From a phage, in sequence record PZ543597.1: DNA of 64,000 bases; one strand, given 5' to 3'. Position 1 is the stretch's first letter. Every line of letters begins with the position of its first letter. The notes under the pieces were generated by a model. That model did not search any database and was not told where the DNA came from. It saw only the letters and a list, made by a program, of their open reading frames with translations. Below are positions 20,449-29,266 of this stretch, one piece after another. A program made the position numbers and the translations under genes.

Positions 20449-20682
20449 ATGAAAACTTACCAAGAATTTATTGCTGAAACTGCTGATGTAAAAGTTGAGT
20501 TTATTTACACTGGCAAGAAAGATAAAATGGGTGAAATGCCTCATGGAGTTCTTCGTGATGCATTAGATAATTTCGGTCAACTCGCCGCAGAAGATTACGG
20601 TGATAAAATTGTTGTTACTGGTCCTGCTGCAGTTATTGAAAAATGGGCAGCAGAAAATAAATCAATTTTTCGTAAAAAATAA
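20449..20682 (+). CDS. internal-protein-like gene with capsid targeting sequence (ipI locus)
   Basis: Begins MKTYQEFIAE, the T-even capsid targeting sequence cleaved by the prohead protease; the rest of the 77-aa protein does not match T4 IpI as recalled. Confidence 0.6.
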   Translation: MKTYQEFIAETADVKVEFIYTGKKDKMGEMPHGVLRDALDNFGQLAAEDYGDKIVVTGPAAVIEKWAAENKSIFRKK

Positions 20683-20683
20683 G

Positions 20684-20712
20684 TTTACTTTTAGATAGGG
20701 TAGTGATACTAT
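20684..20712 (+). promoter_or_regulatory. T4-type early promoter with embedded stem-loop
   Basis: -35 TTTACT, 17-bp spacer, -10 TACTAT; 9-bp inverted repeat gatagggta/taccctatc (20694-20721) with the -10 in its loop. Confidence 0.65.
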
Positions 20713-20740
20713 TACCCTATCTACTACTGAGGAGAATAAA

Positions 20741-20926
20741 ATGAAACGTTGTGAATTAATTCGAAATGTTGCTATTGCAATTTCTGCTTCCGCTTTTAGT
20801 TTTTCAATGTTTGTTGGATTTATATGTGGATTATTGACTACAGCAGAAAATGTGTTTTCACTTGTAGTAGCATTTTTAATTGGTTTAATTGCTATTGTTA
20901 TGGATAAAATTTCTAAAGGTGAATAA
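20741..20926 (+). CDS. small hydrophobic membrane protein
   Basis: 61-aa ORF with two hydrophobic segments and an RBS (gaggag). Confidence 0.5.
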   Translation: MKRCELIRNVAIAISASAFSFSMFVGFICGLLTTAENVFSLVVAFLIGLIAIVMDKISKGE

Positions 20927-21324
20927 TGAACGTTGAATATTATGTATATGCGGATTACGAAAATAATCCGTCTAAAGATGAAGATAATCGTTTAGGTGTA
21001 GATGCTTTCGATTCCCCTGCGGCGGCATGGCAATGGGTTGAAAGAACCGATATTCCTTACCGTTATATTGAAGTGGTTGACCACGCAGGAAACAAGTATC
21101 CTAAGGAAGCATATGTTGCTTCCGGGAAGGTAAATTTCCTTTTGTTTGCAGGTGATAATTATTATCCCCGTGGTGGGTATACCGATTTAATTGCTAAAGC
21201 ATTCTCTGAAGATGAACTCCGTGACATTATCAAAGAAAATGAAAACAAACCGATGGATTCTAATCGCTTTGATTGGTGGCAAATCGTAAATGCTAATACT
21301 CACACTATTGTTGATGAAGGCTGA
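20926..21324 (+). CDS. hypothetical protein
   Basis: 132-aa ORF with ATGA overlap to the upstream gene; phage-like composition. Confidence 0.55.
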   Translation: MNVEYYVYADYENNPSKDEDNRLGVDAFDSPAAAWQWVERTDIPYRYIEVVDHAGNKYPKEAYVASGKVNFLLFAGDNYYPRGGYTDLIAKAFSEDELRDIIKENENKPMDSNRFDWWQIVNANTHTIVDEG

Positions 21325-21326
21325 TA

Positions 21327-21614
21327 ATGATTCTTTATGCGAAAGTATCATCCATTGAAAATGGATATAAATATGATCAAGACGCGGCTAAAGCTTTGAT
21401 TGATGATTATGGCATTTTAACATGTTTTGAAGTTGAAAAGGTTTACATTGACCGTTCATCTTCTCAAGTTAAATTAGTGAAGGAAGAACGTAAATTTAAT
21501 ACAGTAAATTTTGATTTCTTTATTGAAACAGAAAAAGGTCCTCTTGAATATGATATTTTCAAGAATCCTTTGGGTCTTGAATGCATCGTAAATATGTATT
21601 ATTATAAATGGTAA
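21327..21614 (+). CDS. hypothetical protein
   Basis: 95-aa ORF abutting the upstream gene. Confidence 0.5.
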   Translation: MILYAKVSSIENGYKYDQDAAKALIDDYGILTCFEVEKVYIDRSSSQVKLVKEERKFNTVNFDFFIETEKGPLEYDIFKNPLGLECIVNMYYYKW

Positions 21615-21617
21615 ATA

Positions 21618-21642
21618 TGCTTTAAGAATTATTTGTTATTAT
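21618..21642 (+). promoter_or_regulatory. candidate MotA-dependent middle promoter upstream of the tRNA cluster
   Basis: MotA-box-like TGCTTTA at 21618-21624 and TATTAT at 21637-21642; the spacing is slightly short of consensus. Confidence 0.3.
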
Positions 21643-26836: not shown

Positions 26837-27197
26837 ACCGTTGAAGTATGAATTAAAGCGCCAGCTAATTCCTACTGATGTATTAATAGGTCCTGTTATA
26901 CTCATATCATTTGTAATTCTATTGATTATTGGAGGTGTTTTAGATGTTATGACTGATATTGATTCTGGCGAAATACTTGTGTTAATGCTAATTCTTCCAT
27001 TAATAGTTCCACTTTTATTAGTACCTGTAAATTGGGTAGGATACTGGTATCAAGGAAGACATTATCGTAAACGTGTACGCGAATGGAAAGCTCAGTGTAA
27101 AAAGATTAAAAAGGAACACCAGTTTAAACTTGCCGCGTATGAATTTGATGAAATTATGAAATTTGTTAAGGAATCACGATGCAAAAGCCAAAACTAA
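26805..27197 (+). CDS. small membrane protein (coupled chain member)
   Basis: 130 aa from ATG 26805 (MSKPSLYLPSK); hydrophobic core, basic tail, C-terminal FVKESRCK. Confidence 0.5.
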   Translation: MSKPSLYLPSKPLKYELKRQLIPTDVLIGPVILISFVILLIIGGVLDVMTDIDSGEILVLMLILPLIVPLLLVPVNWVGYWYQGRHYRKRVREWKAQCKKIKKEHQFKLAAYEFDEIMKFVKESRCKSQN

Positions 27198-27541
27198 ATA
27201 AAGTCAAATATTCGTTTTCTGAGTCATTTTTAATTTTTGCTGTGGCGTTGGCTGCAGCTCTTGCGGGTAGTCTTTTTGGATTGTTAATTGACTGTCTTAT
27301 TTTAAACATTGACGGCACAGTAAATATAATAGAAGTTTGGAGTGAACTTCACTATACCAAAATTATTTCATTGTTTTCATTTTTTGGTATTATATTATAT
27401 TTTCATTATGATAATTTTAAAATAAATTGGCAAAGAAAAAAGGATTACAAAATACAATTAAAGGAATATAATAACTACATGTCTTATATTGAAAATGAAT
27501 CAATGAAAGAGTTTGTGAGTGATTGCAGGAAAATCAAATGA
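27179..27541 (+). CDS. small membrane protein (coupled chain member)
   Basis: 120-aa ORF with two hydrophobic segments and C-terminal FVSDCRKIK; the start overlaps the previous gene's 3' end. Confidence 0.5.
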   Translation: MQKPKLNKVKYSFSESFLIFAVALAAALAGSLFGLLIDCLILNIDGTVNIIEVWSELHYTKIISLFSFFGIILYFHYDNFKINWQRKKDYKIQLKEYNNYMSYIENESMKEFVSDCRKIK

Positions 27542-28026
27542 TTTTAAAAACTCGCTGGTATGATTTAGATGATGGGGACGATAGCATTTCAGTTGATAGA
27601 GTTGACTGGAATGGCTGTTCCGAAGATATGAAAAATTTGCTGATTAGGGAGTTTAGAATGGGATATCAACCAGTTAAGCCATCTACTGCAACAGATGATA
27701 AATTCGTGTGTATTCATAATGGTCGCGCTAAATTAACGAACGCTGATTGGTTCACAGATAAAATTATGATTCTGTGGTACATTATTAGTTTTCCTGTGAC
27801 ATCATTTGTATTTTGCTTCTTTGGAGAAAGTCCAGTAGGCAGAACGGGAGATTGGATTCTTTTAATCATACTTGTTAATATTTTTACAGCAGCAGTACTA
27901 TCAGGAATATGGTGCGTGTTCATTGAAATGCCATGGCGTTTACGTAGGCAGCAAAAGATTTTTGATGAAAAGAAATATACTCAAAATTTAAATAACTTTA
28001 TCACTGAATGCAGGAAATTAAAATGA
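27538..28026 (+). CDS. small membrane protein (coupled chain member)
   Basis: 162 aa from ATG 27538 (MILKTRWYDL); hydrophobic segments; C-terminal FITECRKLK. Confidence 0.5.
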   Translation: MILKTRWYDLDDGDDSISVDRVDWNGCSEDMKNLLIREFRMGYQPVKPSTATDDKFVCIHNGRAKLTNADWFTDKIMILWYIISFPVTSFVFCFFGESPVGRTGDWILLIILVNIFTAAVLSGIWCVFIEMPWRLRRQQKIFDEKKYTQNLNNFITECRKLK

Positions 28027-28463
28027 AAACATTATCAGCTGGTATTATCTTTATGACAGAAGATAAAGATTTATTCATGGGACGGGTTACTGGTTCTCGT
28101 AAGCCTGGAATGATGGCACATCGCTGGGATATTCCAAAGGGCCGTGTAGAAAATTCTGATTTAAACGCACTAGATGCAGCACGAAGAGAATGTTTAGAAG
28201 AGACTGGTTTTAGCAATTATAATCCAGACCTTCTAGAAGACCTAGGTGTATTTAAATATTCTAGTAATAAAGACTTACAGTTATTTTATTATACGATTCC
28301 AGTAGAGCATGAGATGTTTAGAAATTGCCATTGCGAGTCTTATTTTGAAAATAAAGATGGTGTTATGATTCCAGAGATGGATGCTTTTGCTCTTATTCCT
28401 CGTACTCAGTGGCAATATGTGATGGGTCCTTCACTTTACCGAATAATGAACAGCCTCTTTTAA
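28023..28463 (+). CDS. nudE: Nudix hydrolase
   Basis: Nudix box GRVENSDLNALDAARRECLEETGF; ATGA overlap with the upstream gene; sits immediately upstream of e as T4 nudE (e.1) does. Confidence 0.8.
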   Translation: MKTLSAGIIFMTEDKDLFMGRVTGSRKPGMMAHRWDIPKGRVENSDLNALDAARRECLEETGFSNYNPDLLEDLGVFKYSSNKDLQLFYYTIPVEHEMFRNCHCESYFENKDGVMIPEMDAFALIPRTQWQYVMGPSLYRIMNSLF

Positions 28464-28466
28464 TTT

Positions 28467-28474
28467 ATAAATAC
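28467..28474 (+). promoter_or_regulatory. T4-type late promoter 1 upstream of e
   Basis: Exact TATAAATA. Confidence 0.6.
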
Positions 28475-28500
28475 CTTCTATAAATACTTAGGAGGTATTA
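28471..28500 (+). promoter_or_regulatory. RBS-sequestering stem-loop for e (early transcripts untranslatable, late transcripts open)
   Basis: aataccttct pairs with aggaggtatt (10 bp, one G-U); the 3' arm is the Shine-Dalgarno of e. Same arrangement as described for T4 lysozyme. Confidence 0.7.
28480..28487 (+). promoter_or_regulatory. T4-type late promoter 2 upstream of e, inside the loop of the RBS-sequestering hairpin
   Basis: Exact TATAAATA in the loop between 28471-28480 and its complement 28491-28500. Confidence 0.65.
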
Positions 28501-28988
28501 TGAATATATTTGAAATGTTACGTATAGATGAAGGTCTTAGACTTAAAATCTATAAAGACACCGAAGGCTATTACACTATTGGCATTGGTCATTTGCTTAC
28601 CAAAAGTCCATCACTTAGTGTTGCCAAATCTGAATTAGATAAAGCTATTGGGCGTAATTGCAATGGTGTAATTACAAAAGATGAGGCTGAAAAACTCTTT
28701 AATCAGGATGTTGATGCTGCTGTTCGCGGAATTCTGAGAAATGCTAAATTAAAACCAGTTTATGATTCTCTTGATGCTGTTCGCCGCTGTGCATTAATTA
28801 ATATGGTTTTTCAAATGGGAGAAACCGGCGTGGCAGGATTTACTAATTCTTTACGTATGCTCCAACAAAAACGCTGGGATGAAGCAGCAGTAAATCTAGC
28901 CCAATCTAAATGGTATCGTCAGACACCTAATCGCGCGAAACGCGTAATCTCAACATTTAAAACAGGAACTTGGAAAGCGTATATATGA
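28500..28988 (+). CDS. e: endolysin (T4 lysozyme family)
   Basis: [35 protein letters not shown]..., near-identical to T4 lysozyme for about 130 residues; the last ~30 residues diverge and the product is 162 aa. Confidence 0.97.
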
Positions 28989-29266
28989 AAACATATAGTG
29001 AATTTTTATCAGAATCTATTCTTAACGAAGCTACTGACACATTTGCAACTAAGCTAGGTGCAGCTTTGGTTGAAGCTGAAAGTCTATTAGCACGTATTTC
29101 TGAACTTGCTAGTAAGATAGATACTCGCAAATTTGAACGTACCAGCGATATCGTTAAGCTTGAAGCCTTGTTGCGTATGTGCGATAAACCAGAAGAAATC
29201 GCTAAGAACGGCTCGCTAATGAAACAACGTCTTGAAAAATATATTTCAGGCGCTTCAGAAAAATAG
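28985..29266 (+). CDS. internal-protein-like gene with capsid targeting sequence, translationally coupled to e
   Basis: ATG 28985 overlaps the e stop (ATGA); starts [11 protein letters not shown]; 93 aa; occupies the ipII/ipIII position between e and denV. Confidence 0.6.

Follow-up and report, generated by a model that had tools for sequence, protein, structure and literature searches.

Four Leader-Bearing ORFs in the Genome of a T4-Like Phage

The DNA stretch analyzed here, 64,000 nucleotides (nt) of sequence record PZ543597.1 (hereafter the window), belongs to a T4-like phage of the genus Tequatrovirus and carries four open reading frames (ORFs) beginning with a capsid targeting sequence, the leader of the T-even internal proteins (Ips). 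The four ORFs, designated IpA (20449-20682), IpB (23482-23955), IpC (24081-24644) and IpD (28985-29266), are all located on the + strand and were confirmed at the starts named in the original prediction. A six-frame scan of the window with a leader pattern returned exactly these four matches, all of which open an ORF, while 200 shuffles gave a mean of 0.005 and a maximum of 1 match. The ORFs are distributed, as had been claimed, over three loci: (i) the ipI locus between 57B and trna.4 (IpA), (ii) the interval between rnaC and e.8 (IpB and IpC), and (iii) the ipII/III locus between the lysozyme gene e and denV (IpD).

All four leaders conform to M-K-(T/S)-(Y/F)-x-(E/Q)-F-(I/L)-x-E and retain Tyr4, Phe7, Ile/Leu8 and Glu10. 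Mutagenesis of T4 IPIII assigned Tyr4 and Phe7 to targeting, and Ile/Leu8 and Glu10 to cleavage by gp21 (PMC9026906). The (I/L)-x-E site of gp21 occupies residues 8-10 in each protein (IAE in IpA, LNE in IpB, LTE in IpC and LSE in IpD), and IpB and IpD have, at residue 15, an additional LNE site. Synonymous codon differences separate the four leaders, which argues that the peptide itself is conserved or under selection and that the similarity does not reflect recently copied DNA. Each of the four ATG codons is preceded by a Shine-Dalgarno-like sequence, whereas no such sequence stands ahead of 20437 or 28970, where longer ORFs, unlikely to be real, would begin. A longer ORF from 23305 is also unlikely, since it would traverse rnaC and its terminator.

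The similarity of all four proteins to IpI, IpII and IpIII of T4 detected by BLASTP is confined to the first 10-19 residues. It thus ends with the leader, in line with the predicted distinctness of the mature parts, which showed no homology to these GmrSD inhibitors. This difference from the T4 proteins does not make IpA and IpD new, since by their sequences two of the four products fall into named families, Ip6 (IpA) and an Ip5-like family (IpD). Scans of all four proteins against Pfam, NCBIfam and PADLOC gave sub-threshold noise only (Cytochrome b562, TraA and CARF).

The leader was further surveyed at 22 loci from about 20 T-even genomes, which yielded 92 leader-bearing ORFs, 76 of them distinct, belonging to 18 families. 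The surveyed ORFs occur on one strand only and are restricted to the three loci, with 3-7 per phage where all three were covered; the locus occupied by the Ip5 and Ip7 families differs from phage to phage. Among the 76 distinct leaders, taken from L001-L023 and the window, Met1 and Phe7 are invariant, Lys2 is present in 75, Tyr4 in 72 (the remainder having Phe) and Glu10 in 74. A second site of the form (V/I/L)-L-(N/T)-E is found at residues 12-15 of 15 distinct sequences, including IpB and IpD, which suggests a 15-residue variant of the leader with two predicted cleavage sites. The Ip5 proteins and T4 IpI have a third, longer leader type, and the type of leader is uncoupled from the family of the mature protein.

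Proposed Mode of Action of the Internal Proteins

The reading that we favor, with a probability of about 0.75, is that the four ORFs are internal-protein cassettes of a T4-like phage whose products would be packaged, cleaved and injected, IpA acting against McrBC and the others as proposed below. We infer packaging, cleavage and injection of IpA-IpD from the leader. By analogy with T4 IPIII, it would bind the Ip to the prohead scaffolding core, the prohead protease gp21 would cut after Glu10 of the (I/L)-x-E site, and the mature protein would stay in the head and be injected with the DNA; an Ip delivered in this way could therefore act before any phage gene expression. The genes for the gp21 protease and the gp22 scaffold are present in Bas37, a phage carrying identical IpA, IpB and IpC; for the phage studied here they lie outside the window. 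As to the individual proteins, IpA (Ip6) would counter McrBC type IV restriction, IpD, a diverged Ip5 member, would most likely be aimed at another DNA-entry barrier, and IpB and IpC fill a third slot, bounded by the terminator of rnaC and the promoter of e.8, IpC being either an injected factor or a core- or DNA-associated protein important for growth. The cassettes would be gained, lost and moved when the repeats at their flanks (leader, promoter and terminator) recombine.

The same observations might be explained if the leader-like N-termini were recombination relics and some of the proteins were not packaged, a view consistent with our literature search, which found no virion proteomics report for IpA-IpD, including none covering IpB or IpC. 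We consider this highly improbable, given that the leader peptide is kept while its codons vary, that its residues are near-invariant across the 76 distinct sequences of 18 families, and that ten leader residues suffice for loading foreign proteins into T4 heads (PMC9026906). The literature search also found no mention of RB32ORF133c and its neighbors, and a Druantia/Zorya paper on Bas37 contained nothing on these ip genes.

The favored reading places the four proteins beside the classical Ips of T4. Ip1, Ip2 and Ip3 are injected, and each inhibits a distinct GmrSD type IV enzyme (Bair & Black 2007; Silas et al. 2025, PMC12373910; PMC9391042), which bears out the earlier statement that the ip loci are polymorphic and tied to type IV restriction; ip4 to ip10, by contrast, failed to inhibit 15 GmrSD groups reproducibly (PMC12373910). 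The T4 proteins (IPI*, Ip2 and Ip3) share with IpA-IpD the leader, the predicted cleavage site, the two classical loci and the presence of several unrelated injected proteins per phage, but their mature parts have no sequence similarity to those of IpA-IpD.

IpA Is Identical to a McrBC Counter-Defense Protein

IpA (20449-20682, + strand; 77 amino acids (aa)) has the leader MKTYQEFIAE (residues 1-10), and cleavage expected after IAE would leave a mature protein of 67 aa, 7.4 kDa and isoelectric point (pI) 6.5. With an E value of 1e-52 it falls into PHROG 8111, "internal virion protein", and its homologues in phages fFiEco06, VR7 and PST are labelled ip6 or ipVI. All 77 of its 77 residues are identical to those of Bas37_0260, translated from the fetched locus of Bas37 (Escherichia phage KarlGJung, MZ501089), and the position of the gene between 57B and trna.4 is also the same. 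The two loci differ in that an Ip5 allele adjoins Ip6 in Bas37, whereas Ip6 stands alone in the window.

According to a recent preprint, bas37_0260 (ipI locus) is required on Escherichia coli K-12 BW25113 but dispensable where the host has no type IV restriction, and its clean deletion renders Bas37 specifically sensitive to McrBC (10.1101/2025.11.20.689424). In a supplementary table of the same work, insertions in this gene had a mean of 8.4 reads on BW25113 versus 309.3 on CFT073, and they were tolerated in the reference library, with 15/15 sites hit (10.1101/2025.11.20.689424). Given the identity of IpA with Bas37_0260, its target (McrBC) can therefore no longer be called unknown: on the evidence of sequence, IpA would counter McrBC type IV restriction, an activity shown, in a preprint and in another phage, for the identical protein. 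The original prediction had treated all four ORFs as anti-defense candidates with unknown targets. For the 20449 ORF the candidacy is thus borne out through Bas37_0260 and the remark on targets is superseded. The other three ORFs stay candidates only, and the 24081 ORF may act otherwise, its Bas37 twin having been scored Essential in a transposon screen on a laboratory host (see below).

The AlphaFold model of IpA (predicted local distance difference test score (pLDDT) 82) has a small, generic beta-alpha-beta-beta-alpha-beta sandwich fold, and a Protein Data Bank sequence search with IpA, as well as with IpC, gave nothing usable. All four ip ORFs are on the late-transcription strand, and their loci, polymorphic and set between conserved genes, are syntenic with those of T4, T2, Bas37, slur03 and JS98. 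For IpA only a distant late motif was found: its closest exact upstream copy of the late-promoter motif TATAAATA lies inside gene 1, at 19324. A consensus scan gave a putative sigma-70-type (T4 early-like) promoter, TTTACA-17-TACTAT with TG (20386-20414, + strand), ahead of the gene.

A Third Locus Between rnaC and e.8

IpB and IpC are arranged as two consecutive cassettes, all elements of which are on the + strand. The left edge of the IpB cassette is the terminator hairpin AGCCCCGACCGAAAGGTTGGGGCT at the end of rnaC (23406-23429), followed by an exact T4 late-promoter motif TATAAATA (23436-23443) located 46 nt ahead of the IpB start codon; the right edge is a second, identical 24-nt copy of the hairpin (23963-23986). 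A near-consensus motif, AATAAATA (24035-24042), precedes the IpC start, again by 46 nt, a position that makes it a putative late promoter, and the IpC cassette ends with a different terminator hairpin (24653-24671), followed by CTTTTTGGTATCT.

Comparison with other phages delimits the inserted DNA. The rnaC-e.8 slot is empty in T4 and T2; in T4 a single rnaC hairpin runs straight into GGTATCT and the early promoter of e.8. In phage slur03 the hairpin and the late promoter precede a lone IpB, after which the hairpin recurs ahead of the GGTATCT junction. The window has the hairpin, TATAAATA, IpB, the identical hairpin, AATAAATA, IpC, the different hairpin and the same junction, GGTATCT(A/G)GGCC, which is the T4 sequence found just past its single hairpin. 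All three arrangements rejoin the backbone at CTTTTT|GGTATCT, and the cassette junctions are therefore precise. In JS98 (Dhakavirus) the same slot is occupied by a 205-aa relative, orf135, annotated as "hypothetical protein", and leader-bearing ORFs were found in it in genomes of Tequatrovirus, Mosigvirus and Dhakavirus.

Polymorphic ip cassettes are said to be shuffled between phages and between two loci (ipI and ipII/III), a model attributed to Repoila and colleagues. The cassettes of the window are likewise flanked by repeated promoter, leader and terminator sequences, and the rnaC-e.8 slot would be the third locus in such a scheme. As the slot is not described as an ip locus in the literature found, its recognition is modestly new, a point that the original prediction had not made; the families of IpB and IpC are not recognized as Ips either. 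The overall observation is real and mostly ordinary.

The IpC DNA is 95% identical between the window phage and two Mosigvirus genomes (L007 and L014), compared with 74-80% for the flanking 57B, IpB and e.6. In the same alignments (window 24081-25147 versus 6001-7006 of L007 and 8014-9082 of L014) e.8 is also 92-93% identical. Identity so far above that of the flanks points either to recent exchange between genera or to unusual constraint, and the comparison suggests that the IpC-e.8 segment was recently exchanged.

IpB and IpC Are Distant Paralogues

IpB (23482-23955, + strand; 157 aa, leader MKSYTQFLNE) and IpC (24081-24644, + strand; 187 aa, leader MKTYAEFLTE) both match, over their full length, the profile of PHROG 2280, "unknown function" (E 2e-60 and 2e-53, respectively), although their pairwise identity is only about 25%. 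The mature proteins would be basic: IpB of about 16 kDa and pI 9.5, and IpC of 177 aa, 19.6 kDa and pI 9.54, with 32 Lys and Arg residues. The two share an architecture of leader, small helical N-domain, Pro/Ala/Lys-rich linker and helical C-domain, and are distant paralogues within a basic, helical, two-domain family. A long helical hairpin is predicted for the C-terminal half of IpC, whose AlphaFold model has a pLDDT of 67 overall and of about 80-87 for residues 101-185. A deep search with IpC returned one 50%-identity cluster among 1.84 billion proteins and one 29%-identical relative; with so few homologues, a deeper alignment and hence a better model are unattainable.

IpB has homologues in 512 phage records over a wide range of identity, and IpC in 165 of more than 1200 related records, all but one of these at least 95% identical; in both cases the sampled entries were all annotated as hypothetical or "phage protein". 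Leader-like starts extend beyond the close relatives, since homologues from Klebsiella and Yersinia phages begin with MKFKEFLAE or MLEYSEFLKE, and PHROG 2280 relatives of 204-205 aa (P0027 and JS98 orf135 type) also have one. In Bas37, IpB is identical to the product of bas37_0244 and IpC to that of bas37_0243. IpB is most likely a further dispensable injected factor.

The Essential Score of the IpC Twin

The transposon screen of the Bas37 preprint (HIDEN-SEQ) bears on both proteins through its reference essentiality table and its BW25113-versus-CFT073 table. In these, bas37_0243 (IpC) was hit at 1 of 48 TA sites with a mean of 0.2 reads and scored Essential, against hundreds of reads in its neighbors, while bas37_0244 (IpB; 29/34 sites), bas37_0242 (e.8; 23/23) and bas37_0245 (the ORF before rnaD; 33/38) were Non-essential (10.1101/2025.11.20.689424). 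Neither the main text nor the supplementary discussion of the preprint comments on the score of bas37_0243.

It is quite possible, if short of probable, that this score stems from the technique of the screen or from the locus and that IpC is dispensable like other Ips. The hoc and inh genes are dispensable in T4. Both were nevertheless scored Essential in Extended Data Table 6 (8/100 and 1/49 TA sites, respectively), and locus-dependent effects are conceded by the authors (10.1101/2025.11.20.689424). The screen can thus give false or locus-dependent essential calls, which calls for caution over IpC. The pattern of insertions is harder to reconcile with an artifact: the depleted interval is the gene itself, with IpB (125 bp upstream) and e.8 (downstream) saturated with insertions, polarity is no explanation because the downstream genes are non-essential, and multi-mapping is none because IpC is single-copy. 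Repeat-driven loss of IpC from the Bas37 stock was considered and rejected, as the duplicated hairpin does not bound IpC and the repeats thus fail to explain the missing insertions.

If the score is taken at face value, IpC, and perhaps IpB, might be mainly structural or morphogenetic, a counterpart of IPIII in the prohead core or on the packaged DNA whose loss cripples head assembly. Mature T4 IPIII (183 aa, 20.4 kDa, pI 9.65, 33 Lys and Arg residues) is close to mature IpC in size and charge, and the two are also alike in having the leader. T4 IPIII is moreover a prohead core component, and in its mutants head assembly is slowed by half, the burst is about 40% of normal and polyheads accumulate (PMC9026906). 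An IPIII homologue is absent from five of the six IpC-carrying genomes in which e-denV was covered. Nevertheless, IpC has no sequence or fold similarity to IPIII and is encoded at a different locus, its presence in just 165 of the related records is hard to square with a general role, and five surveyed genomes (L015, L018, L021, L022 and L023) have neither protein, only small Ips, while one (L014) has both. The last two observations also led us to reject IpC as a mutually exclusive stand-in for IPIII. In the part of the screen data covering T4, furthermore, ipI, ipII and ipIII were all non-essential, ipIII being hit at 42/46 sites (10.1101/2025.11.20.689424). On balance we regard a morphogenetic role as rather unlikely.

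The score might alternatively depend on the host. IpC would then be an injected counter-defense protein against a K-12 barrier other than EcoKI, McrA, McrBC and Mrr, and its apparent essentiality would reflect the use of K-12 for making the library, as in the case of dmd and RnlAB. The tolerance of bas37_0260 insertions in the reference library, although the gene is needed in the presence of McrBC, points to a restriction-deleted K-12 library host in which other K-12 systems were kept; the patchy occurrence of IpC and its transfer between genera are typical of accessory counter-defense genes, and dmd is host-dependent according to the authors (10.1101/2025.11.20.689424). T4, T2 and many relatives grow on K-12 without IpC, so that the barrier would need a trigger specific to Bas37-like phages. 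We know of no K-12 system of this kind, and judge the explanation improbable.

Taken together, it can be proposed tentatively, as a possibility that we somewhat doubt, that the rnaC-e.8 slot is an unrecognized third ip locus whose occupant IpC is a head protein, directed there by its leader, that the phage cannot do without. IpC would then be the first essential protein in a class defined by dispensability, either core- or DNA-associated or an antidote to a barrier that even laboratory K-12 possesses. If true, the Essential score would overturn the view of Ips as always dispensable and would point to a new morphogenetic role or to an unknown K-12 barrier.

IpD, a Diverged Member of the Ip5 Family

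IpD (28985-29266, + strand; 93 aa) matches PHROG 3499, "internal head protein" (E 1e-46), the PHROG that also contains T2 Ip5, and has homologues in 497 phage records; its mature form would have 9.2 kDa and pI 6.3. The identity with T2 Ip5 and Bas37_0261 is 47.6% over 84 residues (E between 2e-22 and 6e-24). The two differ in setting, since IpD has a short leader and lies in the e-denV locus, probably coupled in translation to e, whereas Ip5 has a 15-residue IpI-type leader, MKTFKEFATKTTITE, and lies in the ipI locus.

The ATG of IpD overlaps the stop codon of the lysozyme gene e (ATGA). This overlap places the cassette junction within the 3' end of e and makes translational coupling of the two genes probable. 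Two exact TATAAATA late-promoter motifs (28466-28486, + strand) are found just upstream of e, and transcripts spanning e and IpD would likely start from this pair. The C-terminus of the lysozyme in the window (28980-28990) reads ...WKAYI*, whereas T4 lysozyme ends in ...WDAYKNL*.

The header of the BW25113-versus-CFT073 table labels BW the control and CFT the experiment. In this table, Bas37 insertions in the Ip5 allele drop about 4-fold on CFT073, a uropathogenic strain, with a log2 fold change of -2.09 and an adjusted p reported as 0 (10.1101/2025.11.20.689424). This depletion hints at a host-specific role of the Ip5 family and is no evidence on IpD itself. IpD is most likely a specificity variant that would act against another DNA-entry barrier.

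Significance of the Ip Genes

The finding is a correct identification within a long-established class and comprises one protein with a published target, one diverged allele and two members of unrecognized families. Collections of phages for therapy commonly include T-even phages, and Ips, which act prior to phage gene expression, shape the host range of these phages. Four Ips had reported targets by 2025, namely three GmrSD variants and McrBC. To these data the window adds (i) a direct link from an ORF to McrBC, (ii) a diverged Ip5 allele, and (iii) two widespread leader-bearing families. The IpB and IpC families are annotated as hypothetical and are therefore likely to escape screens based on Ip annotation.

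Phage Background and Regional Gene Order

The region 20000-30000 shares 96-97% identity with many Tequatrovirus genomes (e.g., G29, Kelasse and HP3). Its gene order is that of T4 reversed: gene 1, 57A, 57B, the ipI locus, trna.4, trna.3, trna.2, eleven transfer RNA (tRNA) genes, one extra ORF, rnaD, rnaC, e.8 through e.2, nudE, the lysozyme gene e, the ipII/III locus and denV. A DNA alpha-glucosyltransferase is encoded at 55856-57058, and the phage DNA therefore very probably contains glucosyl-hydroxymethylcytosine, a substrate of type IV restriction.

The tRNA cluster (21712-22729) comprises 11 genes (including those for Met, Tyr, Asn and His) versus eight in T4, and no segB homing endonuclease gene was found within it. 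It is followed, between tRNA-Arg and rnaD, by a 116-aa ORF (22748-23098) at a position where T4 has no gene; counterparts, annotated as similar to RB69ORF150c, are present in T2, Kelasse, slur03 and Bas37. The rnaD and rnaC homologues (species 2 and 1; 23095-23395) are near-identical to those of T4 over most of their length, and an Rfam scan of the region detected tRNAs only, rnaC and rnaD having no Rfam family.

Beside the rnaC-e.8 slot, homologues of e.6 and e.5 are encoded at 25596-26836. In the BW25113-versus-CFT073 table, insertions in bas37_0240 and bas37_0239, which occupy the equivalent places in Bas37, are strongly depleted on CFT073 compared with K-12 (log2 fold changes of -6.49 and -3.62, respectively), and the e.6 and e.5 genes, matched to Bas37 by position, may be host-range factors. 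At the far end of the region, Kelasse (11242-11715 of L001), like L011 and L012, has a 157-aa Ip of the family named Ip4 in T2 directly after denV; the corresponding place in the window spans just 98 nt (29741-29839).

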